DNA from: Jimgerdemannia flammicorona
Lineage: Eukaryota
NCBI GenBank assembly: GCA_003990765.1
Contig: RBNJ01000011.1
Span: forward strand, 1-64,000
Length of the DNA stretch: 64,000 bases
Direction of reading: 5' to 3'
The position numbers were made by a program, and so were the translations under genes. A model generated the notes under the pieces. It was not told the DNA's origin, did not search any database, and saw only the letters and a list, made by a program, of their open reading frames with translations. This document shows positions 13,931 through 64,000 of this stretch, piece by piece. Numbering within the stretch: position 1 is the first letter of the stretch; every line of letters starts with the position of its first letter.

Positions 13931-13949
13931 AAAGACTGCTATTATTGCC

Positions 13950-28434: not shown

Positions 28435-28464
28435 GGATTGATTGAGAACAAACTGTATTTCATC

Positions 28465-33950: not shown

Positions 33951-33968
33951 TGGTGCCCATTGGCTGAT
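33951..33968 (+). promoter_or_regulatory. Primer-binding site candidate TGGTGCCCATTGGCTG
   Basis: Starts with TGG 3 nt after the 5' LTR in all three copies. The priming tRNA is not assigned. Confidence 0.7.
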
Positions 33969-34061
33969 GATTCAAGATGAATCCCTCACTTTCAAGCTGA
34001 ACAATGAACAACTGCCACTATCCGAACAACTATACAAACTGAGCCCCAATACCTAGACAAG

Positions 34062-37000
34062 ATAGATATAAGACCACCAGTATTCCATGGATATACCTCA
34101 GATGAATCAATCATCACCTTCATTGATGATTTTGAGCAGTATGCCACTGTAAGGACCCTGACAGCAGCACAGCAAGTAACCCTCATGCCCTTCAGCCTAC
34201 GAGGCCCTGCCAGAGCAGCATTTACAGCCGCAACCCATGCAGGAAATGATGCCAATACTATACTGATAGCACAGAAGACCTGGCTCCAAAATACATATTA
34301 CACAGATGAGATCAAGCAAGCTCTGAAGGATCAGCTCAACACAACATACTAAGGAATGAGCAAGGATCCAAATACATTCTATACCAGAATTCAATATCAG
34401 ATAATCCTTACAGATTATACTGCTGCTATCTGAGATCAAGTAGCCGAAGCAATCTTCATGAAAGGAGTCCATCCAGAAATAGCCATGGCCATCTGCTCAT
34501 CACCAGTAATTCTGGATCTGCCACAGAAGGTCATCTATACTCAGCAATACTGGATAGCCAGACATCCACAAGACCATACAATGGAAAGGATCACAGGAGT
34601 CAGAATCGAGGTACTTAAGGCAACCAGTATGATCTCTACCACAATGATCAATTGGAACACATCTCAGCCAAAAGCTATAGAGCAGCAGAAGAACAGTGAC
34701 CCTATGGAGGAACTCATCAAAAGATTTGCTGAAATGACTGCCCACCTGGGAGACATGGTAAAGGAAATTCGAGGAAGAGACTGCTGCCCTGTCCAGAAGT
34801 TTGCCACCACCTCAGATAAGAAGAAAGGCACCTGCTATACTTGTGGAGAAGAAGGCCACTACTTCTATAAATGCATGAGTAAAACCAAGTACAAGGCTCA
34901 ACCAAGCAATGTCATACAAAATAAGGAACAGGCCAATACAATTACCTTCGAGGACATCAGAGACTCTGATGAAAAAGAATGAGAGGCCTATCCTGCTCAG
35001 ACCACCAGGAAGACCCAAGAAGAACTCAGTGGAAAAGTAGATGGAAACTACTACAGAAAGCCAAGCTGAAGAGATAGACCAAGATACAGAGCTAGAGCAA
35101 GCAGTTCAAGATATCATCTGAGAAACTACTCTAGCCAGTGAAGGAGAAAAAGAAAAGAAGCTTCGCAAGACCAAGACCTTTAAGTATGATATCTTCAAGG
35201 ACCTCAGTCAACAAAAGGTCAATGCAACCTTTGGTCAGCTTACAGAAATCCCAACATTCAGACAGCAAATGAGGTTTGGACTTGCCAAAACAACTAAGGA
35301 ACAAGGATGGAAGATAACTGAGACCAATAATGCTCAAGAGGACTCAGGAGAAGAAAGTGAGAACAATCGCAAAACCTCTACATATGCAACATGCCAAATC
35401 GAAGATAGAATCTTCGAGGCCATTATTGATATGGGAGCAGGAGGATGTCTCCTCAGTAAGAAGGCAGCAGACCACCTAGGTTGGGATGTGAAAGAAGCAA
35501 CTAAGCTGGTGTTTGTCACAGCCGATGGCACAAGAGCTACACCTCTGGGAAAGATCCGAGATGTTCCTATTAAGATTGGAGGAGCAACCATCTCAGTAGA
35601 TGTAATCGTAACCAATGCCACCAACTATGACATCCTCATCGGCAATCAATGGCTTCACAAAGCCAAGGCAGTAATTGATCTCAATGCCCAGAAGATGCAG
35701 ATCACCTACCAGGGACAGAAGATATGAATTCCCATCAATGTCAACAAAGGAGTCCTGCCCAACATGGAGGAAGAAGAGAGCGAGCAAGAGGAAGCTTATA
35801 TGGTGACTACTCCAAAGAAGAAGAAAGTTGGGTGGATGAGTAAAGAAGAATGGTGCAAGAAGATGGCAGAAGGCTATGCACCACAAGAAGTCTGTCCTCA
35901 TGGGATCAAGATGTACTACATGGAGCATATCAATGATTGCTACCAGTGCACCATTGGAATCAGGAAAATCCACCAGGCAAGAAGACAGAAAGCTCTTGAA
36001 AAACAGATCAGAGAAGACAAGAAGGAGGAAGATGACGAACCACCAGTCCTCCTGGAGGACAGTGATGATGAAGAAGAAATCAAGATCAGGATTCGAAAGA
36101 TCCACCCTGATGTAGTCTTGCCAGAATACAAGTCAGAAAATGCAGCTGAAATGGACATCACTACAGTAGAAGAGACCATACTGGAACCCCAGACAACTAC
36201 TCTACTTGCAACTAGATTGGAGATGACTATCCCAAAGGATCATATCGGGATTCTCAAGACAAGAAGTAGTCTAGCTAGAAGTGAAATTACAATTGAAGGA
36301 GGAGTTATTGATTCAGACTACACCAGAGAAATTCTACTCATTGCTAGGAATTACAATCCTACAATTCCATTTCCAGTCAAGAAGAAGGACCAATTGGCAC
36401 AAATGTTGATCTTTCTAATCCTACAACCAAAGATCATAGAAGTTAAGAAGCTGGAGGAAACAAGAAGAGGAAAGAAAGGATTTGGATCCACAGGAAGAGG
36501 AGTATTCGCCAATACCAAGATCACCAAACTTGAGCATAAGAAGGAGGAAAATACAAGCAAGCATAGCTACACCATCAGAAATGAATTTCCACTCAAGAAA
36601 GAACTCAAGAAAATACTCCACGAATTCGAGGACATCCTTGCCACAGATTTCAAGGATATTAAGGGAAAGACCCCATACTACTATTATGAGGTAGATACTG
36701 GAGACACTGAACCAATTTATCAGAAGGCAAGACCTGTCCTGCCAGCCTACTGAGAATGGCTCAGAGAAGAAATCAAGCAGATGGAAGAAGCTGGCATCAT
36801 TAAAGAAGCCAGCAGCCCCTGGTCCTCACCTGTTGTACTAGCCCCAAAAAAAGGAAGCAAGCCTGGAGAATTCGCCCCAAGACTCTGTGTCAACTATAGA
36901 AAACTCAACATGGTTACCAAGAAGGATTGCCAACCACTGCCCCTCATCAATGACATCCTCATAACACTGGGAGATGAAGCACAGTACTACAGCACCTTGG

Positions 37001-38016
37001 ACTTATACTCAGGATTCCACCAAATCGAACTCACAGATATGGCAAGTGAAAAGTCAGCTTTCATCACTCCAGACGGAACCTATGTCTACCTATGAATGCC
37101 ATTTGGAATGTGCAATGCACCAGCAAGCTTCCAGCGAATGATAAACAAAATCTTCTGCTATGACATAGGAAGATGGATGATGGTCTATGTCAATGATATA
37201 ATCATCTACAGCAAGACACCTGAGGAACATCTGCAGCACATACAGCAGATAATGGAGAGACTAAGATAACATGGCCTTTACATCAAACTCAAGAAGTACA
37301 AGTTCACAGAAATCAAGATCTCCTATCTCGGCCATATTATCAACTGAGATGGAACACACATGGACACCCTCAAAATACAAGCAGTGGCAGCATACCCAAG
37401 ACCCACCACTGTTATAGAAGCCCAAGCCTTCATGGGACTTGCCTCCTATTATCGCAGATTTATTAGAGGATTTTCTAATATTGCAGGACCAATCTATGAA
37501 CTTAACAAGAAGGATACCAAGTTCCAGTGGACTGGCAAACAACAAAAAGCATTTGATGAACTTAAGGTTAGACTGACCCAGGCACCCATCCTCAGAAGAC
37601 CTGACTGGACTCAAGAATTCATCCTACAGACTGACACAAGCGCACAAGGACTAGGAGCAGTCCTAGCTCAAAAGAAAGATAAAGTGGAGTATGTCATTGT
37701 ATACCTCAGCCACGGAACCCGAGAAGCTGAAAAAGAATATGAATCCTATAAGTTGGAATGCCTCACAGTCATCTGGGCCATAGAAAAGTTCTACTACTAC
37801 TTGGCTGGAAGACACTTCACCATCCAAATGGACCACTCAGCTCTTACCTGGCTACTGACAACTGGACAACCCAAAGGAATCTATGCCAGATGGATAATGA
37901 AGTTGCAAGCTTATGATGTAACCATTGTACATCACTCTGGAAGAACCAATGCCAATGTAGATGTACTCTCACAGACACCTCGAAGGACCCCACCCCTACA
38001 AAATTGCCATGAATAA
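34062..38016 (+). pseudogene. gag-PR-dUTPase-RT-RNase H, copy 3
   Basis: ORFs starting at 35269, 35764, 36781 and 37360 are all in one frame. dUTPase shows GILKTRSSLA, GGVIDSDY, LAQMLI and RGKKGFGSTG. A small deletion near 35010 shifts gag. Confidence 0.9.
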
Positions 38017-39206
38017 GGAGCTCTACTATGGAATTATCACATACCTGGGACAGCGAAAGATGCCCCAACATCTGGAAGAATGGACACAAATGATTATCAA
38101 CAGAACATGGAAACAATTCGAAACTGATGGAGAAACACTGAAGAAAGGAGAACTACTAGTCATACCAGAATACAAGAAGGAGCAAGTGATGAAATCAGTA
38201 CATGAACTCGGCCACCTAGGAGGAATGAATACATATGATAAGGCAAGGAGAACAATATGGTGGCCAGGGATGGAGGAAGATATCAGACAATTCATCAAGA
38301 CCTGCGACAAATGCCAGAAACAGAAACAAGACCAACAAAATCAAGCCCCAGAATCAGCACACATAGAACCAGTACCATTCGCCCACATTGCAATAGACAT
38401 AATTGGCCCCCTACCCTTGACCTTAACTAGCAACTGATACATCATCATCATTGTAGACCTTTTTACAAAATGGATAGAAGCAGGACCCCTTATGGAAGCC
38501 AATGCACAGTCAATTGCTGATTTCTTCCACAAGGAAATCATCTGCCAGTTCAAGACCCCAACACAAGTAACTATAGATAGAGGAACAGAATTTGTAAACC
38601 AGTTCTTCAAAGTTCTCTACAAGAAGTACAAGATCCAGTATATTCAGACTACAGCATATCACCCTCAAGAAAACAGACAAGTAGAAAGGACCAACAAAAC
38701 CCTCAAGAATGTTATTGCCAAGATCTGTGATATGTAACTACGAGAGCTGGGATCACTATCTACCAATAGCATTATCTGCTCTCCGAGATATCCAATCACA
38801 AAGTACTCACTTTACTCCTCAAGAAATGCTGTTCAGAGAAGAATGTTCCCAGGGAACCCTGTCATCCAATGGAGATGCCGTATGGAAACATGTGGACATG
38901 GAAATATAGAGACTACACCAAATCAGGAAGAAGGCTGAGGATTACATAATGAAGGTGCAGACACTATAACAGAGGAATGCAGAAAAGACCCACAAATCCT
39001 TGGAGATTATCAAGATAGGAGACAAAGTCCTGGTGTATCAGAATATGGTCAAAGCTTCATGGTCACGAAAACTGGAGCCCAAGTGGGAAGGACCTTACCT
39101 TGTGCAAGATATAAAAGAAACCACCTTTTGGCTACGAAAACCATCAGGCACAATAATCCCCACCACCATTCATCGAAACTGACTCAAGAAATATCATGGC
39201 CAGTAA
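38009..39206 (+). pseudogene. Integrase ORF, copy 3
   Basis: ATG at 38009 lies in the +1 frame relative to RNase H (stop 38014-38016). HHCC, DDE core and GPY motifs are present. Confidence 0.85.
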
Positions 39207-39656
39207 CAAAAGTACTACAATGGCACTCAAGATCACTAGTGCTGCCCAAAGAGCCATCGAGAGACAATGGTGCACCACTGAGCCTCCAACCATAGAGGAG
39301 TCTTATGACAGTATCCAAAGCATCATGCAGACTCATCTCCTTGGATCCCACACTTCAAGGCCTATCAGCATTGGAATGAATTCCAAGAGTACTTCAAACT
39401 CAGCCAAGTACTCAACCAAGACCCAGAAATGACCAAAGAAAATTGGATCATAGAATGCCAGCTCTCCTATTCCCAGATCACCATTGCCAAAAGAATCCAC
39501 AAGCTATTCTGAGAGGATGAATCAGCATTAGTCCACCTGTGAGGAGTGACTCCCTCAGACTTCGACTGAGTCAGGTGACACTATTGGGAAACAGTGATGT
39601 AATAAATCGCACAATACAAGACTATACAGACCATTGAAGCTTAGAAGTTTGAATAG
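39196..39656 (+). pseudogene. Accessory ORF3, copy 3 (1-bp deletion)
   Basis: MASNKSTTMALKITS..., colinear with copies 1 and 2. Confidence 0.7.
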
Positions 39657-39943
39657 ATGCTTTAGGGATGAGATCATCTATTCAGGAGGAAGTTGTGATG
39701 GTATAGCCAGATTCAGAAGAAGGAAATAGGGAATAGACACTTGATCGCACCCAGTCCCAAAGTAGTATAGCCACATAGTTAACAGTCCTTGATTTCGCAA
39801 CTTGCTAAATATTTCGCAAAGTACAAGATCGAGCTTCCCAATATAGTATAGCATTTCGCAACTGGCGAAATATTTCGCAAAGTATTAAATGACTCATAAC
39901 TTAGCCACATAACCCAGTAACCATCTTATAGCTAGCAAACTTG

Positions 39944-39975
39944 TATAAATAACCCAGTATCTTCAAGTGAATAAA
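39944..39975 (+). promoter_or_regulatory. LTR TATA box (TATAAA, 39944) and poly(A) signal (AATAAA, 39970)
   Basis: Motifs read directly and present in most family A LTRs. The upstream U3 region has a duplicated TTTCGCAAC..AAATATTTCGCAAAGT motif. Confidence 0.5.
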
Positions 39976-40190
39976 CCTCAGATCAAAATAGTTCAAAGCA
40001 AAGAGATAGCAAAGGAACTAGTAAGCCTATGGGTAGATACACTTCGAACTCACCCACCCTCCCCTGTAACTTCAAGAGACTCTGCGAGAGTCAGAACAGT
40101 CAAGTCTTCAAGATACAGAAATCTGACGTACTTTCAAGAGTAAGCATCTGCTATGTTACAATATATAGAGTGAGTTAAAAAGTGAAGAGA

Positions 40191-41067: not shown

Positions 41068-44000
41068 CTGTCACCCAAGAAGAAAAACATACAAATCACT
41101 ACTTATACCCAAGAACTCATTCCAATAAGAAAATTGCTCACAGATATTTAACTTTGACTATTATACCACTAAATATCAAGAACATTTTATTACTTTTAAC
41201 AAAGTAACTGAGGGCTTAAGCCAAACTATGCTAACCCCCAACCTTGTAATTTATCTCTATTGAGTCAGGCATATTACATTTAGAGACTCAACTAGAAAGA
41301 TTTCAAATTGATATAACTTTTTAGCTTATAAGAACCCATAGTCAAACTGGATATATTTGATATAATACTAATCTCTACTACTACAGAAGAACCAGTCATC
41401 ACTAACATTTGGATAGAAAGAGAAGTAATTACTTCAAGACTTACCAACTACTCAATATCAGAGAAATCCCAACCAGAAGTCAGTATAGTACAGAATCTCC
41501 AGCCAGTACTAACAGACTTATTATAGGATCAATCAGACCAACCAGATTACACAGACAGCTCTGCCAGAGTTTTTGATGAGCTTGGACAATAGTTTGAAGA
41601 CCTTATTGCATAAGTCTGAGTTCTTGTAGAAGACCTACTAATTTTGTCCATTGATTCTCTACTACTAGCTACTATAAAATAGGAAGATCAAGAAATAGCT
41701 CCATTAAGGATACCCAGATCTATTCTATCTCACTCAAGATCTCCAACACCATTCTTAAGATATCCAAGTATCCTGAACTCCAGTAATAACACAGAAAGTA
41801 AATTAGAATCAGAATTAGATTTAGTACCAAGATTAGAACCAGAACTAGAATTAGAAGACAGTGATAACAAAATGGCTACCCCATTGCCAACCTTTGTAGG
41901 ATACTCTGAAGAAGATCCAAGAAAATTCCTTAATAGAATAGAAGAAATTACAGCTCTGAAAAATCTTACTTCTGAAAGAAAAATCACTATCTATAAGACC
42001 CAACTCAGAGAACCAGCCAAAGGAATTTTTACCTAAGTATATAATGATCCAAACTCAGACCTTGGAGCAGTCATTATTGCAGTAATAACTTAGCTAGTAG
42101 AGTATCAAGCTATGATCCACTGACTTATTGAGAAGTATACAGAAAATGGGATTTACTATAAAGCTTAAGAATCTATTATAGAGATAAAGATGAATCTTAA
42201 AGAATTACCCAGAGCATTCTTCATAAGAATTCAGAAGAGAATGTATGTAGCTAGGTTCAATACCACTATATAAAATACCCCAGAGATAAGAGTGAATAAA
42301 TCTCAGTCTAAAAAGTTCAAAAGCAAAAGACAAATCTATCTGCCATACTTTGAAAAGAACTTTAAAGCCACTACTAAGAGATTGTAAGCTTACTTTCCAC
42401 TTTGGTCTACTTTTTGATATAAAGAATAAGTCTGCTATATTTTTGGTTTACTTATCAGATAAGTCTGAAGAATTCAAAGAAGTCCACCTCTTATTACAAA
42501 GTCAGTCTTTAGATATAACTTTGCAGTGAACTTATTTATACAAATTAAGTTAGTTTTGATATAACTTTACTAAGAGAAGAATCTGCTATTCCCAGAGAGC
42601 TCTATAGGAATCTTACCACAAGCCAATCTATCTGATATAACCTTATAGTAGAGCTAGTCTATGATATAACTCTATATAAATAAAGTCAGTCTTTGATATA
42701 ACTTGTTAAAAATCTATATTATCTGAGTTATTTCTCAGAAGTCTACTAATTTAAGAAGAATTTACATCATCTACTATTTTTGAGTTCTCTGCTAACCTAG
42801 TTATCTAAGTTACTCAAGTTATCTAAGTTATCAAATAGTGCTCTGAACGAGTCAATCTGGATGGAATTTGGATGGATTTGAATCCCATCTGGATCAACTT
42901 GGATTGGATTCGAATCCCATCTGGATCAACTTGGATGGGATTCGAATCCCATCCAGATGGATTTGAATCAACCATTGTTTTGATTTCTAAATTGGATAAT
43001 TAAATGTTTATATCAATAACTCAATGAACAATCATCCAAATTTGATGATCTTGGTGTCATTTGAAAGCCCTTAATAAGGCCTATCTAATGATATCAAGAA
43101 CATTGAAATCCAATCATACGTTGCTGAGTTATGAAGGAAACCATCTGAATTGCTGATTTTGGAAATTTCATCAAATAGAATGTTTTCCTTAATATATCGG
43201 CAATGCGTAATCCGATTTTAATGTTCTTGATATCATTAGAAAGGCCTTATTAAGGGCCTTCAAATGACACTAAGAGAATCAAATTTGGATGATTATTCAT
43301 TGAGTTATTGATATAAACATTTAATTGTCCAATTTGGATTTTTTTTTTATTATAAAACGAGTAGATAATAGCAGAAGAGGTTTGAGTGAGATGTGATACT
43401 GTTACGGCGGATATGAAGGTCGGCAGTAAAAGGTCAAACAGTTATGAAAAGCTTATGTGAATTTTCACGACGGAACAGAAAGCGGAATAAAGTGTTTTCC
43501 GAAGCAAGGTGCAATAGATCTGCAACCCGCCCACGGCACCGCAGTTGCGATGGTCTTTATTCAATTTGAGAAACAAAGTTCGGATAAACAAAGACACGGA
43601 TCTAACCCCGGAATTCCGGAATCGGACAGGTGCATAAGTACCCGAGCCTTGCCCCGATCCAAACAAAGGTCTGAATCGGGCTTTGTCGATCTACACACGT
43701 GACAGGCCATTAAAAACCCGATATAGAAACAATCGGGAAAAGGTACCGGTCACGTGATCTAATGTTACACAATCAGTAAACAATGCCAAAAACGGAACTA
43801 GACCAATGATGCAACATGTGTCGTCACGTGATTGTCACTTATAGGTTTAAAAACCTAAAAATTGTCGGCACCCGAAGGCGCAGGCGTCAGGCCTAGAGCC
43901 TCGTGACCGGAGCGGAGTAGAGCCTCGGCACCGGAGCGAGCAAAGCGAGCAGAGGTAGACAGGCGTCACAGAGCATAGGTATGCAGGTGTCAGGCCTAGA

Positions 44001-44074
44001 GCCTCGCGCCGGAGGTTGTCCGGCAATTTTTCGCGTTTTTAAACATCGCACGGCACATACAAGCGGTGCGGCCT

Positions 44075-46081
44075 TCAAGGAGGAATTAAAGCGAAGCTGG
44101 TGTTTGAGACAGCATTAAGAACGGTAAAACCATTCTTCCGGGCGATGATCGGTCGTCGGGCAGTCGCAGGGAAACCAAAATGAAGCAAAGCGGTACGTAG
44201 AGTCTTGTCGGGCTGTTGATGTAGCCATCGGGCCGTGTCGTATTGGATGACAAGCAACGGGGGAGGAAAAGCGGAGTGGGGGATGGGGGGGTGGGAAATA
44301 AGAGGAGGGGTGAGAAGTGAAGTTCGGACCTCAAGCCAATCAACCAAACTCAATTAAGCGGTTACAACATCAACAGGGTATCCTTTCCTGTGAACCAGGA
44401 ACTCAGCCAAAGACCAACACTCATCAAGCCAATCACGGCGAGAAGAGCAGAGAAGCGAAAGGCGGCGGGCCTCATTTACGATGCATAGACGGAGTGTCTT
44501 CCTAGGATGATTGCTCAACCAGTCAACAAACTGAGTACTACGCGGGAACTTGGCAAAGTGGCCTGTGTGGAACAGTGCGACTCGGATTTCCAGGTCTAAG
44601 TAATGGCACGGTCCAGTGGACAAGACTTCCCATTCGATACGATGGTGCGGAGGGTACACGGCAGCAAAGATCGAGGCCAAGTCCATAATCGCGGGCGTAA
44701 AGACGATAAGATCATCAATATACCGGTGGAACTTTAGCCCAGCAGCGACGGCTCGGCTAAGCAGATGATCGGGCGCTTGCAAGGCGCGCAACTCATGAGC
44801 GAAACCAACAAGATTGGCAAGATCCAGAGCACAATTAGTGCCCATAGCAATACCAGTCACAGAGCAGAAGGAACCGATGGTGGATGTAAACGTCATACGA
44901 GTCATGACTATGTGGACAAGGCCGAGAATGGCTTCAAGCGGCAAAGAGCCAGGGGGAAAGGCCACCGTCGACAAAAAGGTGAGGCAGTCAATGCACTTAT
45001 CTAATGTGATCCTGGTGTAGAAGGCGGCGAAATCTCCAGTAGCAACGTATGAGCAATCTGACACATCAAGGTAATCCGATCGAACCAATTGAAGCAGTTC
45101 GAGCGTATCACGTAAAGGTGAATAACGGGAGTAACCCACATTATGGCGCAGATGGGCCGACCACAGACGGAGAAAGCGAGATAGGAAACGCGAAATCTCG
45201 GTCGTAGGAGAGTTAAACGCACCAACGATAGGGCGCCATGCCACGTGAGCTCCTTTGTGTACCTTGGGCAGAGCATGAAACACGGGTAGCTTACAATTGA
45301 TGGGCTCCATGAGGTGTTCCCAAATCGGCATACAATTATGATTACCGATGCAGAACTCGAGTAGACCAAGAAGGTCTAGCCTCACTGATTCCTTAACGTT
45401 ATCAATCGTAGAGGGATCATACACATACGCAGGATCGTGAAGGAGAGACCGAAGACCGTCGAGATATAGAGCGCACGGTATAACGGTGAACCCCAGATTT
45501 TTGTCAGTAAGACAGACAGTGAAGTCGTCATGAGTATGGATGCCTTTAAGAAGGCGGCGGAACTTCTTCGGTACAAGCACGCCGGACACATTCGTCGTGG
45601 GTCGGACAGCTTGATTCAAAGCGGCACTCATATGGAGCATAATTTGCATATTTTCCATACAATGCGGCGGTCACCATTTAGATGGCACCCAGGCAGAGAT
45701 CTCCAGGACGTCGTCAGGATTACCCATAGAGGTCCAGAAGGTGGCAAGGTCGAGACGCCGTTGGAACGACGACAACGAAATCGGGTCGATGGTGCTGTTC
45801 ATCGATGCCGACCCGGGGAGAACGAACTTAGGGCCAAAGTTCAGCATATACGTGAGCTCGGGGGTAAGCCAAGGCAGAGGTATATTGGTAACAAAGCCCT
45901 CCTTGGTAAACATCCGAAACCGAGGGACGAAAAACTGACTTAAGCAAGAACCGGGAAGAGAAGACACGAAGGCAAAATCTTCAATTGGTGTCGAGGCCGC
46001 TACCCCACGTGGAATGGGGACATCAGGGCCAAACCACACTGCCAGGAAGTCGTATAAGACTTCCGGGCTGGGGACCTCTAG
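44075..46081 (-). pseudogene. PLE reverse transcriptase ORF2 (arm A; two in-frame stops)
   Basis: PLE motifs LNFGPKF, TDKNLG, FHALPKVHK..WRPIV...SPT, GDFAAFYTRI, GIAMGTNCA.DLANL, RYIDDL, YLDLEI, WLSNHP and GYP. Confidence 0.88.
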
Positions 46082-47238
46082 TTTTTCGACGCTAGAGGGC
46101 AGGCATCACCGGCGTTATGCCAGATGACATGATGTTTAGCGGCAGTACACTTGTTGCACTGCGGCACAAATGCCCTGGCGGTGCTCTTAGACGAGCGGCT
46201 CGAAGTCGACGAGCGGCTGGTCCCGGTAGAAGCAGAAGAAGCAGACGGGGAAGGCGAAGCCTTACGTGCTCGCTTGACCCCTTTTACAGAACCCTCGGTC
46301 ACAGCCGGGGCTAGGGGGCAAGGACCTCGGTGGGCCTTTGTAGGCACACCAAGGCGTCCAGAACAGCTATGGCAGTTCGGCGCAACAGAAGCCGAGGTCA
46401 CCTTCACCTCCTTCACCTTTCCCGCAGCCCCCGCAGGCGCGGCAGTAGAGGGTAGGGGGGTGGGGACACTCTTTTTCGGTCGGGCGGAACCGGCGGCAGC
46501 AGAAGCAAATGTGCGTTTGGCACCTGGAGTAACAATCTCGGGGCGCTTCCCAAGCTCCTCAACTGCGGCTTTGCGGGCGGCAGCGGAAATCCCATCTTGC
46601 AGGGAGGAGGACACAGAGGCTATCGGGCAGACAGCAGCGGCAGCGGCTTTGGCAGCGGCGGTGGCGGCGAGACGGTGAGACTGATGCACGACAACGTCAA
46701 AACCACGGAACAAGAACAAGTTTGTCTTAGCTCTGTCAGTGGCAGCAAGGGTAGCGATATTCTTGGCTACCCCAAGAGTGATATCGACCGATACACCAAA
46801 AAATTGATGGGCATTGGAAGAACCACCCATGGCCTTGTCGATTTTAGCATGCTGGTCCTTAGTATGCTGGGCGGCAGCTTCCTGATCAGAAATGGCAGCC
46901 TCGATCGCGGCAGTGGCACGGTGCTTAGCTTCTGCCAAAGCAGTAGTAAGGGCGGCATCATGCTGTTCCTCAGGTAGGAGGGCGATGGCAGCAGCTACCT
47001 TCTTGGAAGGAGTAAACCTCCAATCGGCAACTTGGGCCCATAGGAAATCGGCACAGCATTCTTTCGCGGCGGCGACCTCAAGGGCGGAGAGCACTCCGGT
47101 GCAAGCAGCACGGAAGTAGGTAGGGACCTCGGCAGACGTGGCAGCAACGTAGGCTGCAAGGTTGTCGAACTCTGCCAAATCGGCGAAGGAAGCTTTGGGG
47201 ATGGCAGCATCGCCATCTATATTCATATTATCTATCAT
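46078..47238 (-). CDS. PLE ORF1, 386 aa (Ala-rich helical N-terminus, two CxxC..H..C motifs), open frame
   Basis: Uninterrupted ORF starting 6 nt after the pLTR end. It is colinear in arm B and in the decayed copy. Confidence 0.75.
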   Translation of the reverse strand: MIDNMNIDGDAAIPKASFADLAEFDNLAAYVAATSAEVPTYFRAACTGVLSALEVAAAKECCADFLWAQVADWRFTPSKKVAAAIALLPEEQHDAALTTALAEAKHRATAAIEAAISDQEAAAQHTKDQHAKIDKAMGGSSNAHQFFGVSVDITLGVAKNIATLAATDRAKTNLFLFRGFDVVVHQSHRLAATAAAKAAAAAVCPIASVSSSLQDGISAAARKAAVEELGKRPEIVTPGAKRTFASAAAGSARPKKSVPTPLPSTAAPAGAAGKVKEVKVTSASVAPNCHSCSGRLGVPTKAHRGPCPLAPAVTEGSVKGVKRARKASPSPSASSASTGTSRSSTSSRSSKSTARAFVPQCNKCTAAKHHVIWHNAGDACPLASKN

Positions 47239-47956
47239 GTTGTGTATTATAAAACGAGTAGATAATAGCGGAAGAGGTTTGAGCGAGATGTGATACTGTT
47301 ACGGTGGATATGAAGGTCAGCAGTAAAAGGTCAAACAGTTATGAAAAGCTTATGTGAATTTTCATGACGGAACAGAAAGTGGAATAAAGTGTTTTCCGAA
47401 GCAAGGTGCAATAGATCTGCAACCCGCCCACGGCACCGCAGTTTGCGATGGTCTTTATTCAATTTGAGAAACAAAGTTCGGATAAACAAAGACACGGATC
47501 TAACCCCGGAATTCCGGAATTGGACAGGTGCATAAGTACCCGAGCCTTGCCCCGATCCAAACAAAGGTCTGAATCGGGCTTCGTTGATCTATACACGTGA
47601 CGGGCCATTAAAAACCCGATATATAAACAATCGGAAAAAGGTACCGGTCACATGATCTAATGTTACACAATCAGTAAACAATGCCAAAAACGGAACTAGA
47701 CCAATGACGCAACACGTGTCGTCACGTGATTGTCACTTATAGGTTTAAAAACGCGAAAAATCGCCGGACAACCTCTGGCGCGAGGCTCTAGGCCTGACGC
47801 CTGCGTACCTACGCTCTGTGACACCTGTCTACCTCCACTCGCTTCGCTCGCTCTGGTGTCGAGGCTCTACTCCGCTCTGGTCATGAGGCTCTAGGCCTGA
47901 CGCCTGCGCCTTCGGGTGCCGACGATTTTTAGGTTTTTAAACCTATAAGTGACAAT

Positions 47957-48091
47957 CACGTGACGACACGTGTTGCGTCATTGGTCTAGTTCCATTTTTG
48001 GCATTGTTTACTGATTGTGTAACATTAGATCACGTGACCGGTACCTTTTCCCGATTGTTTCTATATCGGGTTTTTAATGGCCTGTCACGTG
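47957..48091 (+). promoter_or_regulatory. Cluster of four CACGTG E-boxes with CCAAT and TGTTTAC motifs in the pLTR (putative promoter)
   Basis: CACGTG at 47957, 47967, 48031 and 48086, ATTGG at ~47980 and TGTTTAC at 48005. The cluster recurs in the other pLTR copies. Confidence 0.5.
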
Positions 48092-48446
48092 TGTAGATCG
48101 ACGAAGCCCGATTCAGACCTTTGTTTGGATCGGGGCAAGGCTCGGGTACTTATGCACCTGTCCGATTCCGGAATTCCGGGGTTAGATCCGTGTCTTTGTT
48201 TATCCGAACTTTGTTTCTCAAATTGAATAAAGACCATCGCAAACTGCGGTGCCGTGGGCGGGTTGCAGATCTATTGCACCTTGCTTCGGAAAACACTTTA
48301 TTCCGCTTTCTGTTCTGTCGTGAAAATTCACATAAGCTTTTCATAACTGTTTGACCTTTTACTGCCGACCTTCATATCCGCCGTAACAGTATCACATCTC
48401 GCTCAAACCTCTTCCGCTATTATCTACTCGTTTTATAATACACAAC

Positions 48447-49607
48447 ATGACAGATAATATGAATATAGATGGCGATGCTGCCATCCCCAAAGCTTCCTTC
48501 GCCGATTTGGCGGAGTTCGACAACCTTGCAGCCTACATTGCTGCCGTGTCTGCTGAGGTCCCTACCTACTTCTGTGCTGCTTGCACCGGAGTGCTCTCCA
48601 CCCTTGAGGTCGCCGCCGTGAAAGAACGCCATGCTGATTTCCTACGGGCCCAAGTTGCCGATTGGAGGTTTACTCCTTCCAAGAAGGTAGCTGCTGCCAT
48701 CGCCCTCCTACCTGAGAAATAGCGTGATACCGCCCTTACTACTGCTTCGGCAGAAGCTAAGCGCCGCGCCACTGCCGTGATCGAGGCTGCCGTTTCTGAT
48801 CAGGAAGCTGCCGCCCAGCATGCTAAGGACCAGTGTGCTAAAATCGACAAGGCCATGGGTGGTTCTTCCGATGCCCATCAATTTTTTGGTGTATCGGTTG
48901 ATATCACTCTTAGGGTAGCCAAGAATATCGCTACCCTTGCTGCCACCGACAGAGCTAAGACAAACTTGTTCTTGTTCCATGGTTTTGACATTGTCGTGCG
49001 TCAGTCTCGCCGTCTCGCTGCCGCCGCCGCTGCCAAAGCCACTGCTGCTGCCATCCGCCCGATAGCCCCTGCGTCCTCCTCCCTGCAAGATGGGATTTCC
49101 GCCGCCGCCCGCAAAGCCGTAGTTGAGGAGCTTGGGAAGCGCCCCGAGATTGTTACTCCGGGTGCCAAACGCACATTTGCTTCTGCTGCCGCCGGTTCCG
49201 CCCGACCGAAAAAGAGTGTCCCCACCCCCCTACTCTCTACCGCCGCGCCTGCGGGGGCTGCGGGAAAGGTGAAGGAGGTGAAGGTGACCTTGGCTTCTGT
49301 TGTGCCGAACTGCCGTAGCTGTTCTGGACACCTTGGTGTGCCTACAAAGGCCCACCGAGGTCCTTGCCCCCTAGCCCCAGCTGTGACTGAGGGTTCTGTA
49401 AAAGGGGTCAAGCGAGCACGTAAGGCTTCGCCTTCCCCGTCTGCTTCTTCTGCTTCTACCGGGACCAGCCGCTCGTCGACTTCGAGCCGCTCATCTAAGA
49501 GCGCCGCCAGGGCATTTGTGCCGCAGTGCAACAAGTGTACTGCCGCTAAACGTCATGTCGTCTGGCATAACGCCGATGATGCCTGCCCTCTAGCGTCGAA
49601 AAACTAG
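48447..49607 (+). pseudogene. PLE ORF1 (arm B; premature TAG at 48720-48722)
   Basis: Colinear with 46078-47238. Confidence 0.8.
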
Positions 49608-51610
49608 AGGTCCCCAGCCCAGAAGTCTTATACGACTTCCTGGCAGCGTGGTTTGGCCCTGATGTCCCCATTCTACGTGGGGTAGCGGCCTCAACACCAA
49701 TTGAGGATTTTGCCTTCGTGTCTTCTCTTCCCGGTTCTCGCTTAAGTCAGTTTTTCGTCCCTTGGTTTCGGATGTTTACCGAGGAGGGCTTTGTTACCGA
49801 TATACCTCCGCCTTGGCTTACCCCCGAGCTCATGTATATGCTGAACTTTGGCCCTAAGTTTGTTCTCCCCGGGTCGGCATTGATGAACAGCACCATCGAC
49901 CCGATTTCGTTGTCATCGTTCCAATGGCGTCTCGACCTTGCCACCTTCTGGACCTCTATGGGTAATCCTGACGACGTCCCGGAGATCTCTGCCTGGGTGC
50001 CATCTAAATGGTGACCGCCGCATTGTATGGAAAATATGCAAATTATGCTCCATATGAGTACCGCTTTGAATCAAGCTGTCCGACCCACGACAAATGTGTC
50101 CGGTGCGCTTGTACCGAAGAAGTTCCGCCGCCTTCTTAAAGGCGTCCGTACTCATGACGACTTCACTGTCTGTCTTACCGACAAAAATCTGGGGTTCGCC
50201 ATTATACCGCGCGCTCTATATCTCGACGGTCTTCGGTCTCTCCTTCACGATCCTGCGTACGTGTATGATCCCTCTATGATTGATAACGTTAAGGAATCAG
50301 TGAGGCTAGACCTTCTTGGTCTACTCGAGTTCTGCATCGGCGATCATAATTGTATGCCGATTTGGGAACACCTCATGGAGCCCATCGATTGTAAGCTACC
50401 CGTGTTTCATGCTCTGCCCAAGGTACACAAAGGAGCTCGCGTGGCATGGCACCCTATCGTTGGTGCGTTTAACTCTCCTACGACCGAGATTTCGCGTTTC
50501 CTATCTCGCTTTCTCCATCTGTGGTCGGCCCATCTGCGCCATAATGTGGGTTACTCCCGTTATTCACCTTTACGTGATACGCTCGAACTGCTTCAATTGG
50601 TTCGATCGGATTACCTTGACATGTCAGATTGCTCATACGTTGCTACTGGAGATTTCGCCGCCTTCTACACCAGGATCACATTAGATGAGTGCATCGACTG
50701 CCTCACCTTTTTGTCGATGGTGGCCTTCCCCCCTGGCTCTTTGCCACTTGAAGCCGTTCTCGGCCTTATCCGCATAGTCATGACTCGTATGACGTTTACA
50801 TCCGCCATCAGTTCCTTCCGCTCCGTGACTGGTATTGCTATGGGCACTAATTGTGCTCCGGATCTTGCCAATCTTGTTGGTTTCGCTCATGAGTTGCACG
50901 CCTCGCAAGCGCCCGATCATCTGCTTAGCCGAGCCGTCGCTGCCGGGCTAAAGTTCCGCCGGTATATTGATGATCTTATCATCTTTACGCCCGCGATTAT
51001 GGACTTGGCCTTGATCTTTGCTGCCGTGTACCCTCTGCACCATCGTATCGAATGGGAAGTCTTGTCCGCCGGACCGTGCCATTACTTAGACCTGGAAATC
51101 CGAGTCACACCGTTCCGCACAGGCCACTTTGCCAAGTTCCCGCGTAGTACTCAGTTTGTCGACTGGTTGAGCAATCATCCTAGGAAGACACTCTGTCTAT
51201 GCATTGTAAATGAGGCCCGCCACCTTTCGCTTCTCTGCTCTTCTCGCCGTGATTGGCTTGATGAGTGTCGGTCTTTGGCCGAGTTCCTGGTTCACAGGAA
51301 AGGATACCCTGTTGATGTTGTAACCGCTCAATTGAGTTTGGTTGATTGGCTTGAGGTCCGAACTTCACTTCTCACCCCTCCTCTTATTTCCCACCCCCCC
51401 ATCCCCCACTCCGCTTTTCCTCCCCTGTTGCTTGTCGTCCAATATGACACGGCCCGATGGCTACATCAACAGCCCGACAAGACTCTACATACCGCTTTGC
51501 TTCGTTTTGGTTTCCCTGTGACTGCCTGACAACCGATCATCGCCCGAAAGAATGGTTTTACCATTCTTAATGCTGTCTCAAACACCAGCTTCGCTTTAAG
51601 TCCTCCTTGA
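49604..51610 (+). pseudogene. PLE reverse transcriptase ORF2 (arm B)
   Basis: Same motifs as arm A. In-frame TGA at 50012-50014 and 51527-51529; no GIY-YIG motif seen. Confidence 0.88.
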
Positions 51611-53227
51611 AGGCCGCACCGCTTGTACGTGCCGTGCGATGTTTAAAAACGCGAAAAATTGCCGGACAACCTCCGGCGCGAGGCTCTAGGCCTGACACCT
51701 GCGTACCTACACTCCATGACGCCTGTCTACCTCCGCTCGCTTCGCTCGCTCCGGTGCCGAGGCTCTACTCCGCTCCAGTCGCGAGGCTCTAGGCCTGACG
51801 CCTGCGCCTTCGGATGCTGACGATTTTTAGGTTTTTAAACCTATAAGTGACAATCATGTGACGACACGTGTTGCGTCATTGGTCTAGTTCCGTTTTTGGC
51901 ATTGTTTACTGATTGTGTAACATTAGATCACGTGACCGGTACCTTTTCCCGATTGTTTCTATATCGGGTTTTTAATGGCCCGTCACGTGTGTAGATCGAC
52001 GAAGCCCGATTCAGACCTTTGTTTGGATCGGGGCAAGGCTCGGGTACTTATGCACCTGTCCGATTCCGGAATTCCGGGGTTAGATCCATGTCTTTGTTTA
52101 TCCGAACTTTGTTTCTCAAATTGAATAAAGACCATCGCAAACTGCGGTGCCATGGGCGGGTTGCAGATCTATTGCACCTTGCTTCGGAAAATACTTTATT
52201 CCACTTTCTGTTCTGTCATGAAAATTCACATAAGCTTTTCATAACTGTTTGACCTTTTACTGCCGACCTTCATATCCGCCGTAACAGTATCACATCTCGC
52301 TCAAACCTCTTCCGCTATTATCTACTCGTTTTATAATAAAAAAAAAAACAATGGTTGATTCGAATCAATCCAGATTAAATTGACTCATTAGGAGCACTAT
52401 TATCAAGTTATCCAATATTCCCAGAGAGTCTGCCAATTCAGAAGAATCTATGTCAAACTAAGTTATCTACCAAAACTAAGTTATCTGAGTTATTAAATCA
52501 AATTTCCCACTAAATACAAAATACTACTAAGATCATTATACTGAAATCATATAAGGAAACTACCAAATTATCAGACTGATCTATATGAGGAACTCACTTA
52601 TACTATATAAGAGATTATTATATAAAAATTATATACTTTTAGAAGATTATGTACTACTACTTAAGAAAGAAACTACTAAATTAGTAAATCACTATATTAT
52701 ACTAAATCACCACTATATCTAAGAACTATTCCAATAAAGAAATTGACATACAAATATATAACTATATTCAGATTTAACTATTATACTACTAAATACTAAG
52801 TACCTTAAGAATTATAAAATATTTTATTGCTTTTTAACAAAATAACTAGAGGCTCAAGTCAAACTATATCAATTCTCAACTTTGTAATTTGTCTCTATTG
52901 AGCTAAGTATATTATTCTAGTGTCAAATATTATAGAGCTAGATATTATAATTTTTAAATATATAATATAAAGTTATTAATATTATTTTTATAAGCAAATT
53001 CTATAAGCTTATAATAATCAATAGCAAAATTTACATCTTTGCAAATTATATGATATTGTATTCAAATAATGCAACATTATATAAAAGAATGCTAGAAGCT
53101 ATATACAATCTTTAATATTACTTCAATATAGTCTTTTAATATAGTAAATACTGCTTATATTTAATTACTAGTATAAAAATTATTTTTCATATCTTAATAA
53201 TGATTTCAGTCTTAATAATCTGTTTTT

Positions 53228-59696: not shown

Positions 59697-60208
59697 ATAT
59701 AATATATATTTTCTAATTAGAGAAGATTATTTTTATAACTATTTAAATAAATTATATAATTGATATAATTATCTGCAAAATTATATAATAGTATTTAGGG
59801 TCTGAAAGAAATATATGTATTAGTAAAATATAATAAAAAGATCTCATAGTCAAAACTATTTTTCTACTAAGATATCTATTATAAAATTATATATATATAT
59901 ATATTAGTCAATATAGAGTATTATATTATATTTAAAATATAAATATATATATATAGTAATATATAGCTATACCTTAGTAGTAATGATATATATTTATTAT
60001 TCTAATATTTGATATCTAGAGTGATCTAGCAGCTAATATTTCTAGATATACTAGAATAGAATCAATTACTTATAATTGAATATCTTTGTTCATTGAGTCT
60101 AGAATTGTAATAAATAGTCTATTCCTTATATTGTAATCAGATATAGGCAAATTTGTCTATAAAAAATTTAATTTAAAATTTTTAAATTTTTTTTTTTAAT
60201 ATAATATA

Positions 60209-63200
60209 TTTTTTTTTATTATTATTAAATATATAAATAATAGAGGAAAATGTTATATTGAGATATAATACTGATATGGTAGATATAAAGATCAGCAGTA
60301 AGAGTCAAGTAGATAGAAATAAAAAAGCTTATATAAAATTTTATAATAGAGTAAGAAAGTAGAATAAAGTATTTTCTGAAGCAAGATATAATTGATCTGT
60401 AACCCACTATTGACACCACAGTCTGTGATAGTCTTTATTCAAATTTGATAATAAGGTTTGATTATAAGAAACATAGATCTAATCTCAGAATTCTGGAATC
60501 AGAATAGTGTATAAGTTCCTAAATCATTACTCAATCCAAACAAAAGTCTGAATTGGTCAATATTAATCTATGCATGTGACAGATCATTAAAAACTCAATA
60601 TAGAAATGATCAGAAAAAGGTACTAGTTATGTGATCAAATATTATATATATATAAATAATACCAAAAACAGAACTAGACCAATGATAGTTATGTAATTGT
60701 CACTTATAGAGTTTAAAACCTAAAAATCATTAGCACCTAAAGATACAGGCATAAGGCCTAGAGTCTTATAACTAGAGCAGAGTAGAGTCTTGATACTGGA
60801 GCAAGTAAAGTAAGCAGAGATAGACAGGTATTATAGAGTATAGATATACAGGTGTCAGGCCTAGAGCCTCACATTGGAGGTTGTCTAGCAATTTTTTTGC
60901 ATTTTTAAACATTGCACAGCATATATGGACAGTACAGTCTTCAAAGAGAACTTAGAGTAAAACTAGTATTTGAGATAGTATTAAGAACAGTAAAACCATT
61001 CTTTTAGATAATGATTGGTCATCAGATAGTTGCAGAGAAATCAAAATGAAGTAAAGTAGTATATAGAGTCTTGTCAGGCTATTGATATAGCCATTAGGCT
61101 GTATTATATTAGATAACAAGCAATAGAGAAGGAAAAGTGGAGTAGGGAATAGAGGGGTGGGAAATAAGGAGAGGGGTTAAAAGTAAAGTTCAAATCTCAA
61201 ACTAGTCAATCAAACTCAATTGAGTGATTATAATATCAACAGGGTATCCTTTTCTGTAAACCAGGAATTTGGCTAGAGACTAATACTCATTAAGTTAATT
61301 ATGGTAAAATGAGTAAAGTAGTAATAGGTGGTAGATCTCATTTACAATATATAGATATAGTATCTTTCTAGGGTAATTGCTCAATCAGTTGACAAGCTGA
61401 GTACTTTATGAAAATTTGGTAAAATGACCTATGCAGAATGGTGTGACTCAGATTTTTAGGTCCAAGTAATGATACAGCCCAGCAGATAAGACTTTCTATT
61501 CAATATGATAGTATGGAGAGTATATAGCACTGAAGATCAAGATTAAGTCTATAATTGTAGATGTAAAGATAATTAAGTCATTGATAAACCAGCTGAACTT
61601 TAGCCTAGCAGCTATGACTCAACTAAGTAGATAATTAGGTATTTGTAAGGTATATAATTTATAAGTGAAACCAATGATATTAGTAAGATCTAAAGTATAA
61701 TTGGTACCTATAGTAATGTCAGTAATGAGTGAAAGGAACTAATAGCAGATGTAAATATCATATGAGTCATGACTATGTAAATAAGGCCTAGAATGGCTTC
61801 AAGCAGCAGAGAGCTAGAGAGAAATACTATGGTCAACAGAAAGATGAGATAGTTGATGCACTCATCTAGTGTGATCCTGATATAGAATATAGCAAAATTC
61901 CCAGTAGTGATGAGACAGCAATCAGATACATCCAAGTAATCTAATTGAACTAATTGTAAAAGTTTGAGCATATTATACAGAGGTAAATATCATAAATAAT
62001 CCACATTATAGTATAGATAGACTAACTACAAATAGAGAAAGTAAGATAGAAAATATGAAATCTCAATTATAGGAGAGTTACATAAATACTCTAATGATAG
62101 AGTATCATACTATGTAAGCTCTTTTGTATACCTTGGGTAGAGTATAAAACACAGGTAGCTTATAATCATTAGGTTCTATAAGGTGATCCCAGATCAGCAT
62201 ACAACTTGAATTTCTGATACAGAACTCCAATAGACTCAATAGATCTAACCTCACTGATTCCTTAATATTATCAATTATAGAGAAATAATTCACATATACA
62301 GGATTGTGAAAGAGAGACTAAAGACCATCAAGATACAGAGTATATAAAATAATAATAAACTTCAGATTTTTGTTAGTAAGATAAACAGTAAAGTCATCAT
62401 AAGTATAGACATCTTTAAGAAGACATCAAAACTTCTTCAGTATAAGTATACTAGATATATTTGTTATAGGTCAGATAGCTTGATTCAACATAGCACTAAT
62501 ATGATGTATAATTTGTATATTTTCTATATAGTATAGTAGTTACCATTTAGATGATACCCAGGTAGAGATCTCTGAAATATCATCAGAATTACCTATAGAG
62601 GTCTAGAAGATGACAAGGTCAAGACACTGTTGGAATGACAATAATAAAATTAGATTGATGGTACTATTCATCAATATCAACTCAGAGAGAATAAACTTTG
62701 AGCCAAAGTTCAGCATATACATGAGCTTGGGGATAAGCTAAGATAGAGGTATATTAGTAACAAAGCTCTCCTCAGTAAACATCTAAAACTGAGGAATGAA
62801 AAACTGACTTAAGTGGGAGCTGAGAAGAGTAGATACATATAAAGACAAAATCCTGAATTGGTATCAAGACTGCTACTCTATATAGAATGGGGACATTGGG
62901 GCCAAACCATGCTAATATAAGACATCCAGGCTGGGGATCTCTATTTTTTTGAAGCTAGAGGATAGATATTATCAGCATTATACTAGATGATATAATATTT
63001 AGTAGCAGTATATTTATTGTATTGTGGTACAAATACCCTAGTGGTGCTCTTAGATGAGTAGCTCAAAGTTGATGAGTAGCTGGTTCTAGTAAAAGTAGAA
63101 AAAACAGATAGGAAAAGAGAAGTTCTTTATACTCTCTTGGTCTCTTTTATAGAACCCACTGACTTAGTAGGGGCTAGGGGGCAAGGATCTCAATGGATCT

Positions 63201-64000
63201 TTATAGACATACTAAGGCATCCAGAACAGTTGTAGCAGTTCAGTATAGTAGAGGCTAAAGTTATACACACCACCTTTATCTTTTCTATAGCCTTTGCAGA
63301 TATGGCAGTCAAGAGTTGGATATTGAAGATACTCTTTTTCAGCTAAGTGGAATCAGTAGCAGTAGAAGCAAATGTACATTTGGTACCTAGAGTAACAATC
63401 TCAAAATACTTCCCAAGCTTTCAACTAGGACTTTATGGGTAATAGTGGTAATCTCTTTTTGAAGAGATGAAGATGTAGAGACTGTTGAGTAGACTACAGC
63501 AGTAGCAGCTTTAGCAGTAGTGATAGTAGCAAGATAGTGAGATTGATACATAATAATATCAAAATTATGAAACAGAAACAAGTTTGTCTTGATTCAGTCA
63601 GTGGCAGTGAGGGTGATAATATTCTTACTAGCCTTTTGGGCAGTATTAGTAGGAAGCCCAAAAAAGGTGAGTGCTTCTAAGATACTTCTATGACTTTGTC
63701 AATTTTAGCATACTGGTCCTTAGCATGCTGAGCAGTAGTATTATTATCAGTTGTGGCAGTCTTGATTGTAGCTTTGGCATGGCACTTGATTTCTATAGAT
63801 GCAGTAGTAAGGGTGGCATCATACTATTTCTCTGGAAGGAGGGCAATTATAGTAGCAATCTTCTTAGAAGGGGTAAACTTTCAATTAGCAAGTTGGGCCT
63901 ACAGAAAGTCAGCATGGTACTCATATGTGATAGTCACTTTAAGGGCATGAAGTACTCTAGTATAAGTAGCATAGAAGATAGTGGGGACCTCAATGGAAGA
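60209..64000 (-). mobile_element. Third, heavily decayed copy of the Penelope-like element (runs off the window)
   Basis: Colinear with 43339-47130 (pLTR, RT, ORF1), e.g. IDNIKESVRLDLL..LEFCI and KLPVFYTLPKVYK, with pervasive C>T/G>A changes. Confidence 0.9.

Follow-up and report, generated by a model that had tools for sequence, protein, structure and literature searches.

The stretch analysed here (the window; 64,000 nucleotides (nt), positions 1 to 64,000 of the forward strand of contig RBNJ01000011.1, assembly GCA_003990765.1, Jimgerdemannia flammicorona) carries at 43339-52348 an inverted pair of one element, identified below as an endonuclease-less Penelope-like element (PLE), inside a palindromic miniature inverted-repeat transposable element (MITE). 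The window has a G+C content of 39% and shows strong CpG decay. The two arms, 43545-47759 and 47926-52140, are complementary at 96%, and each is ordered terminal repeat, open reading frame (ORF) 1, ORF2, terminal repeat and poly(A), the terminal repeat or pseudo-long terminal repeat (pLTR) being 698 bp long (Table 1). An earlier note on this DNA had described a 9-kb head-to-head PLE palindrome with outward poly(A) ends; the palindrome is real, its centre pattern having 66 exact matches in the genome versus 0 for the reversed control, and the ends read T10 on the left and A11 on the right. That note had also seen two complete copies around a spacer of about 180 bp, joined at a 10-bp microhomology. 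The right copy is indeed complete, whereas the left one lacks nt 1-190 of its 5' terminal repeat, which begins at repeat nt 191. GTTTAAAAAC lies at 47743-47752 and its mirror GTTTTTAAAC at 47933-47942, with the 180 bp between them as described, but these form no separate spacer, being the inside of the opening hairpin of the right copy's 5' terminal repeat. The 10-bp match at 47743-47752 is likewise present, as the outermost portion of an imperfect inverted repeat of 20-21 bp that closes the hairpin in every full terminal repeat.

The whole-arm alignment of 4420 columns contains 178 differences, of which 175 are transitions, at least 139 of them at CpG, and the arms appear to have been identical at birth and to have decayed separately afterwards. 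Both copies are now dead, with stops in ORF2 of each arm and in ORF1 of the right arm. An amplification or assembly artefact could be suspected because many dimers in the 231 Mb genome searched end at contig ends; the divergence of at least 4% between the arms, mostly CpG transitions, is however unlike a chimera or a collapsed repeat, and removal of the dimer restores an exact empty MITE site, which also argues against an artefact. Together with an endonuclease supplied in trans and homogenisation of the arms after insertion, both taken up below, this explanation is considered very unlikely. As for the empty site, AATC follows directly past the left junction in 28 of 29 other MITE copies, and 24 of 29 read AATCAAAACAATGG, so the site proposed by the earlier note, with aatc lost and no target-site duplication (TSD), holds: the insertion cost 4 bp (AATC), or up to 8 bp when four target A's are counted, and duplicated nothing.

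Table 1 Features of the palindromic dimer and related sequence in the window
Feature	Position	Strand	Remark
Left part of host palindromic MITE (self-inverted, 85%)	42986-43338	.	Ends CCAATTTGGA at insertion point
Poly(A) tail of left (short) arm, reads T10	43339-43348	-	A/T microhomology with target: none
3' terminal repeat (pLTR, 698 bp), left arm, own hairpin copy included	43348-44044	-	
ORF2, left arm: Penelope-like reverse transcriptase and thumb, without GIY-YIG, stop-interrupted	44075-46087	-	
ORF1, left arm, 386 amino acids, open frame	46078-47238	-	
Partial 5' terminal repeat, left arm (repeat nt 191-698)	47245-47752	-	
Centre: 200-nt imperfect rod hairpin, terminal repeat nt 1-200; palindrome axis; proposed snap-back primer	47743-47942	+	Closing stem GTTTAAAAAC...GTTTTTAAAC
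Complete 5' terminal repeat, right (long) arm	47743-48440	+	
ORF1, right arm, single premature stop	48447-49607	+	
Candidate -1 frameshift signal, ORF1/ORF2 junction, right arm	49598-49643	+	
ORF2, right arm: DKN, reverse transcriptase motifs (GIAMG, YIDD), thumb; two internal stops	49598-51610	+	
3' terminal repeat, right arm	51641-52338	+	
Poly(A) tail of right (long) arm, A11	52338-52348	+	Last four A's coincide with target AAAA
Rest of host MITE (CAATGGTTGATTCGAATC...)	52349-52420	.	
Older arm from this family, decayed (73% identical)	60209-64000	-	Head-to-head centre just past window end

ORF2 is assigned by its sequence to the reverse transcriptases (RTs) of Penelope-like type, as it contains the DKN motif (TDKNLG; DKN or DKG in this type), an RT core (GIAMG, RRYIDD) and a thumb. 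Proteins combining RT and GIY-YIG are among its 2612 relatives, its protein-atlas neighbours score 0.94-0.97 and carry PF26215/PF28514, and the Pfam scan gave RVT_1 below the cut-off (E 2e-4). The 698-bp direct repeats and the inverted partial copy correspond to the pseudo-LTR arrangement of PLEs. No GIY-YIG endonuclease was found by the Pfam scan or by motif in the six frames of the right arm, and ORF2 stops 30 bp short of the 3' repeat, so that an endonuclease domain has no room, in line with the endonuclease-less class named in the earlier note. In a FastTree phylogeny of 150 RT cores, which has long branches and no named Coprina or Athena references, the RT falls in a five-row endonuclease-less clade (Shimodaira-Hasegawa support 99) together with four proteins that have short C-termini and no visible GIY-YIG, two of them fragments and one from Racocetra fulgida (the nearest named relative, fungal), and outside the clade that holds every row with a C-terminal GIY-YIG. 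A Pfam scan of ORF1 and both RT frames revealed none of the marks of a DIRS/Ngaro or LTR retrotransposon, namely a tyrosine recombinase or integrase and an RNase H. Apart from antisense frames of ORF1, the arm contains no further long ORF.

ORF1 (386 amino acids) has two Cys/His knuckle-like motifs close to its C-terminus, and its N-terminal two thirds are helical in a single-sequence fold of low confidence (mean predicted local distance difference test score 43). It matched no Pfam family, had no homologue among 8000 scored candidates of 212-678 amino acids, gave protein-atlas scores all under 0.9, and showed no significant match to a profile of N-termini from long endonuclease-less relatives. 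The overlap between ORF1 and ORF2, in the -1 frame, lies at A_AAA_AAC in eight of the ten arms inspected and at G_AAA_AAC in both window arms, with a GGAAGTC/GACTTCC stem-loop 3' of the heptamer. A_AAA_AAC is a heptamer that we take to be of the slippery -1 frameshift type, and the overlap is thus a candidate programmed frameshift joining ORF1 to the RT.

Other marks of known PLE groups were also searched for. The Rfam scan revealed no hammerhead family to E 5 and the terminal repeat has no conserved CTGANGA...GAAA core, although a divergent ribozyme would escape; the only Rfam matches were sub-threshold, miRNA-like and to MITE-side repeats. A conserved CxC motif upstream of the RT was not recognised in a regex-level test. 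Host telomeres, which we presume to consist of TTAGGGTTAGGG, were not met with in 189 loci (0 matches), even though telomeric copies may still exist given the fragmented assembly; the telomere association for which the earlier note had proposed a survey was therefore not found, while its internal site was, in the host MITE at the window and in internal repeats flanking the copies elsewhere. The element thus behaves as an endonuclease-less PLE, yet it shows neither the telomeric location and hammerhead of Coprina and Athena nor the nuclease, TSD and tail of endonuclease-bearing PLEs.

The palindrome is not a one-off event at this locus, as the earlier note had allowed, nor a single repair accident. 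Of 40 loci scored among 312 candidates in the genome, 39 matched a 501-bp centre query over its full length, all centred at one position, and the fixed centre recurs at the 66 pattern sites. Both sides are visible at 33 of 59 centres, 29 of which run into ORF1 on both arms and four of which have one arm made of terminal repeat plus tail; these four are evenly split between the long arm, defined as that with the whole hairpin, and the short arm (two each). None of the 33 is a repeat-only mini-palindrome with both arms reduced. Arms are extended into tandems at three loci (L040, L080, L096). Classical 5'-truncated monomers were rejected, since most of 16 apparent monomer breakpoints adjoin the 5' end of a long interspersed nuclear element (LINE), another tail or a split centre; none of the three was assigned at four of the 16 (L046, L134, L135, L139). 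The head-to-head palindromic dimer is the normal insertion form of the family.

The centre coincides with the first 200 nt of the terminal repeat, which fold as a rod (z -5.6, 0/200 shuffles). In the cDNA sense, the 3' end of this hairpin is fully paired and poised to extend into nt 201. Over 36 arms, a single one of the 190 hairpin sites varies by transversion, a smaller share than in the remaining repeat (43 of 508 sites, p 1e-5) and in ORF2 (68 of 1830, p 0.02); in ORF1 the count is 73 of 1150. The hairpin is also richer in G+C than any other part. GCG faces CT in an internal mismatch of the stem, and this mismatch is kept in 52 of 66 centres, whereas 13 have CT on both sides (CT/CT) and one a shortened form; in L032, the only such case among the centres listed, GCG stands on both sides. 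At the CT/CT loci, the 3' repeats keep the normal stem form and the centres carry the same subfamily tags as ordinary centres, which indicates that the junction is made anew at each insertion, and CT/CT centres would be expected from a slightly shorter primer end. We propose that the palindrome centre is a programmed self-priming hairpin of the element. The claim of the earlier note that the junction forms through the element's own inverted repeat is consistent with its place in the hairpin stem. The older copy in the window (60186-64000, 73% identical), continued in L190 (C11:64001-65255), has a stuttered T-run end and a centre of the CT/CT type; its second arm breaks off after about 330 bp into other sequence.

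A second endonuclease-less PLE family, 36% identical to the first over 108 RT residues, was found on five contigs (C270, C304, C1033, C1134, C2003) as pairs of RT sequences that lie on opposite strands at a distance of 5.0 kb. All three centres fetched coincide with a 13-15-bp stem, and the hairpin that it closes at the repeat start (z -4.8) measures 181 nt, or 108 nt in a copy with a deletion. The three centres have no blastn match to the first-family terminal repeat; the stems of both families are an A-run paired with a T-run. This family includes 696-amino-acid open frames and a hairpin-centred dimer (L033:9050-10000, L187-L189), has no clear poly(A) at its 3' end in L033, and starts on C270 about 60 bp past a first-family dimer. 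A metagenome scan added 22 distant loci (24-28%), none head-to-head; these PLE-like RT genes (L191-L212) lie mostly on 3.1-3.9 kb contigs with repeated ends (circular or tandem units), and L208/L209 is an exact 3196-bp tandem.

Both arms of a dimer descend from one template lineage. By transversions, the sister arm is the nearest relative in 17 of 18 dimers (exception L090), with 0.45-6.6 transversions per kb within dimers (0.46 in the window) against a minimum of 4.6 and a median of 13.9 between loci (612 pairs). Repeat nt 590-605 form an indel-variable tag by which at least eight subfamily types can be told apart; as read by eye, it is equal in both arms at all 32 distinct loci where both arms are readable, so that tags are never mixed. 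Homogenisation of the arms after insertion would also bring sister arms together; however, locus-private transversions fall at third codon positions more often when common to both arms (34 of 51) than when confined to one (33 of 84, p 0.003), suggesting that they were inherited from a replicating template lineage rather than spread by later conversion. Within a locus, the four repeats are for the most part 0-3 transversions apart over 490 bp (as many as 7-9 in L032, L080 and L090), so each cycle probably rebuilds the 5' repeat from its 3' counterpart; a four-repeat pattern test on transversions (six arm-wise, six position-wise, one cross) favours neither side. Arm-specific haplotypes in L090 and L093, considered as evidence of two templates, fall in the indel-variable tag and are probably alignment artefacts. 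Movement of the whole palindrome as DNA was likewise rejected, as the centre form varies inside subfamilies, tails differ, and the four repeats per locus are nearly identical in transversions. The tag region itself (about 48332-48347 in the window) is indel-hypervariable and possibly a transcription start or template-jump site.

Footprints at the target were examined in 13 dimers with both flanks, L154 and L157 being left out because their left ends were misassigned. No short TSD (7-20 bp) was present in any of the 13, direct junction matches of at most 3 bp being no longer than in 210 control pairs (which reach 6 bp) and inverted matches at most 2 bp, which extends the absence of TSDs at the window to other copies. 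Three of the 13 have deletions (window 4-8 bp, L084 10 bp, L090 about 164 bp), two have direct duplications reaching both junctions (L092 about 312-319 bp, compared with three uninterrupted copies; L081 about 715 bp), and eight have flanks unmatched within the 0.3-2 kb examined. Insertion targets include Gypsy elements, LINEs, MITEs, (TA)n and the element's own copies. These footprints look unlike the work of a nuclease with a fixed stagger. A nuclease acting in trans, perhaps from the L1-like LINEs of the window, has a possible source in the ORF at 28435-29316, presumably endonuclease-like by its motifs; it is opposed by the lack of 7-20 bp TSDs in all 13 dimers, which agrees with the earlier suggestion of priming on pre-existing DNA ends. 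The suggestion that a MITE cruciform caused the target break did not hold and was rejected, since the host MITE recurs only once, at L086, among the ends listed.

On these grounds, we propose that a two-ORF endonuclease-less PLE inserts by a single priming event followed by snap-back of the cDNA, which yields the 9-kb head-to-head palindrome from one template, a reading to which we give an even chance. From the observed structure, recurrence, hairpin, lineage sharing and footprints, we infer the enzymatic steps as follows. An existing chromosomal 3' end (a break, gap or stalled fork) would use a few T's to pair with poly(A) RNA and so prime reverse transcription; the RT would copy the 3' repeat, ORF2 and ORF1, and a template jump would regenerate the 5' repeat from the 3' repeat. 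At nt 1, the cDNA would fold on the 200-nt hairpin and prime its own second strand, so that the whole arm is copied back, and the new 3' end, now beside its starting point, would be joined to the chromosome again, by microhomology or without it, at an offset that varies. A downstream offset would give a deletion (4-8 bp in the window), an upstream one a long duplication, and a join elsewhere unmatched flanks. Replication or repair would then unroll the 4.4-kb stem into a palindrome; in the window dimer, the right arm would be the first strand. Snap-back is favoured because sister arms need no added assumption, the hairpin is used as folded, the new 3' end returns near the primer site, and a free offset yields deletions, duplications and distant joins alike. 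Its broader form, that at least two deeply diverged fungal PLE families share a nuclease-free retrotransposition pathway, seems to us a little short of evenly probable. In it, priming of one 3' end on poly(A) would be followed by a turn of synthesis at a dedicated hairpin, more strongly constrained than the RT, and a giant stem-loop in one strand would rejoin at a free offset, with the dimer as insertion unit and each event deleting, duplicating (hundreds of bp) or rearranging host DNA.

The earlier note had preferred priming at both ends of a break with annealing of the two cDNAs, and had named fold-back synthesis as the alternative. Two-ended priming could be programmed: both 3' ends of the break would prime on poly(A), using either two RNAs of common source or a single RNA that is read twice, the hairpin would pair the cDNAs, or first the RNAs as a dimerisation signal, in antiparallel fashion, and each cDNA would template the other's second strand. 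This is a plausible course whose probability we put clearly below one half. It accounts directly for repeat-only arms on either side (two long and two short of 33), for tail lengths and stutter patterns that are independent at the two ends, and for GTTTTATAAT, a duplication by re-initiation in the tail of the L132 short arm, and conservation of the whole hairpin suits a dimerisation signal. In the sections consulted, a Penelope (Poseidon) protein is described to extend both target strands in vitro (PMC11167929), and L1 ends extended off different templates can join in opposite orientation (PMC11702581). However, the hairpin is nearly invariant over at least eight tags, yet none of 32 loci mixes tags and 17 of 18 dimers have sister arms, so that the model needs strict cis pairing as an extra assumption; duplications of 0.3-0.7 kb require two 3' ends staggered that far; and a single RNA used twice should give longer tails on short arms, contrary to the trend. 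Short-arm tails are no longer than long-arm tails in 12 of 16 pairs (p 0.04; three pairs are cut by contig ends). Junctions point the same way: by eye, and with the ambiguous L087 and untyped ends left out, the empty-site base adjoining the flank is an A at 10 of 11 long-arm ends (p 0.02 against a null of 0.58) and at eight of 14 short-arm ends (p 1.0), so that short-arm junctions are without excess poly(A) pairing. Shared template lineage, the self-priming hairpin at the centre and this weak excess of T/poly(A) pairing, confined to the whole-hairpin arm, make fold-back fit somewhat better.

Several observations weigh against snap-back. The difference in microhomology between long and short arms is not significant (p 0.08), nor is a pooled tail-length test (p 0.07), and the short tail exceeds the long one in four of 16 pairs, including L031, whose long arm is tail-less. 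A pure copy of the first tail should share its interruptions, and the tails are mostly unmirrored: interruptions differ between the ends of L033, L083, L084, L086, L088, L132 and L152, are partly common to both in L047, and are identical only in L035, where both are contig ends. In L079 and L167, the whole-hairpin arm consists of the terminal repeat only and the other arm is long, which needs later recombination between repeats. As repeat-only mini-palindromes are lacking at all 33 two-sided centres, snap-back must be blocked at the first hairpin pass, and as inverted flank copies do not exceed 2 bp, second-strand synthesis must halt at the target. One 3' repeat of L032 carries 7-9 transversions common to other loci, a possible mixed template or conversion, and flipping of the spacer after insertion could scramble the long and short arm labels.

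A third course, in which a free linear palindrome is made off the chromosome (oligo(dT)- or self-primed, snapped back and unrolled) and captured at breaks by end joining via its A tails, would cover the single template lineage, the fixed centre, the absence of TSDs, the deletions and the unmatched flanks in eight of 13 dimers. It is improbable in view of the excess target T pairing at long-arm junctions (10 of 11), of long exact duplications and stuttered tails, which arise more easily by target priming, and of the lack of an evident primer source.

Both ends of the dimers stop at TTTTATAAT(A), followed by an A-rich tail or the flank, and neither has a one-sided tail extension of 30-40 bp. The tail interruptions consist only of T or TAAT, the element's own last bases (e.g. 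L047, L084, L132, L163); they resemble repeated re-initiation or telomerase-style slippage, the GTTTTATAAT copy in L132 being of the re-initiation kind. Tail-less ends join via AATA or ATA microhomology (L031, L081, L092, L163), and the short-arm ends of L081 and L092 are nearly tail-less with AATA. Four ends adjoin (TA)n tracts (L045, L092, L131, L163), which could pair with the UAUAAUA 3' end of the element. A host repeat (CCCTCTGAACAAGCCAC...) lies at or near the insertion ends of L034, L048, L079, L084 and L150 and may be a preferred target.

The head-to-head layout is known from nuclease-bearing Penelopes, and its nuclease-less, interstitial, full-length form is new. In the parts of PMC3846280 and PMC8557442 consulted, the Penelope/Poseidon units Pen2a_Av, Pen2_Av and Pen3a of Adineta vaga have head-to-head inverted pLTRs with junction palindromes of 18-38 bp, for which self-priming was proposed. 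As in those units, an ORF lies between two direct pLTRs with an adjacent inverted copy head to head, which overlaps the direct pLTR briefly, and the palindrome lies at the pLTR 5' end. Unlike them as there described, the Jimgerdemannia element has two ORFs, no GIY-YIG and no 8-10 bp TSD; a whole second element replaces the truncated inverted pLTR in 29 of 33 two-sided centres, the junction is fixed to a 200-nt rod, and both ends stop at one base with poly(A) rather than with a one-sided 30-40 bp tail. Endonuclease-deficient fungal and protist PLEs are said in the same part of PMC3846280 not to share the organisation of endonuclease-bearing Penelopes. Since the inverted layout occurs here without a nuclease and fixed to one hairpin, the nuclease is not its maker.

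With Coprina and Athena/Terminons, as the sections of PMC8557442 and PMC13159263 present them, the element has in common an RT without endonuclease, a helical upstream ORF and priming on existing DNA ends. Endonuclease-less PLEs are described there as generally terminal (PMC8557442), and Coprina-1_Alen as telomeric (PMC13159263). In contrast, the present element is non-telomeric (in MITE, Gypsy, LINE, (TA)n and its own copies), ends in poly(A) instead of a reverse-complement telomeric repeat, has no hammerhead that was found, and forms palindromic dimers instead of polarised terminal arrays. It resembles PLE-X of Chara and Selaginella in being endonuclease-less with internal, even genome-wide insertion; PLE-X (Chlamys) carry CxC and hammerheads, neither of which was recognised here, and palindromic dimers are undescribed for PLE-X in that section of PMC8557442, which leaves their internal insertion route still to be seen. 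L1 twin priming and fold-back, in the part of PMC11702581 consulted, also give inverted products via a second primer or cDNA self-annealing, with target deletions and duplications, yet those inversions arise sporadically and their junctions vary, and a TSD and a single poly(A) remain after twin priming, whereas here the inversion is programmed and the rule. No description of full-length head-to-head dimers in endonuclease-less fungal PLEs was met in the literature searched, most subscription papers, Repbase and supplements lying outside the search.

The dimer structure suggests how nuclease-less Penelopes can enter chromosome interiors, and the family repeatedly gives rise to 9-kb palindromes, deletions and long duplications in a genome rich in repeats. 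Endonuclease-independent insertion of L1 is a further parallel. In the rolling hairpin of parvoviruses, an imperfect terminal palindrome of about 200 nt lets the 3' end prime copying of the whole unit to a head-to-head dimer; the analogy is one of mechanism only, as the present element has no nickase or resolution site, is RT-based and ends in the chromosome. The family offers dozens of datable footprints and one defined 200-nt cis element, and fold-back versus two-ended priming becomes directly testable with a telomerase-related RT. How PLE inverted structures form and how endonuclease-less PLEs reach chromosome interiors are both stated as open in the consulted parts of PMC8557442 and PMC3846280.

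Other repeats of the window also touch on the family. L1-like LINEs of the type at 26.3-32.2 kb interrupt or adjoin the element by their 5' ends at L041, L042, L043, L048, L082, L087, L133, L136, L140, L141 and L143, which suggests a target preference for the G+C-rich PLE. The host MITE family has at least 1407 candidates in the genome, and its outer ends (42855-42986 in the window) consist of palindromic units of the GGATTCGAATCC type in arrays that vary. At 5517-25345 and 33478-40167 lie several decayed LTR elements of Gypsy type, direct and inverted and about 90% alike, with frames that we take from their motifs to be protease, dUTPase-like, RT and integrase-like.

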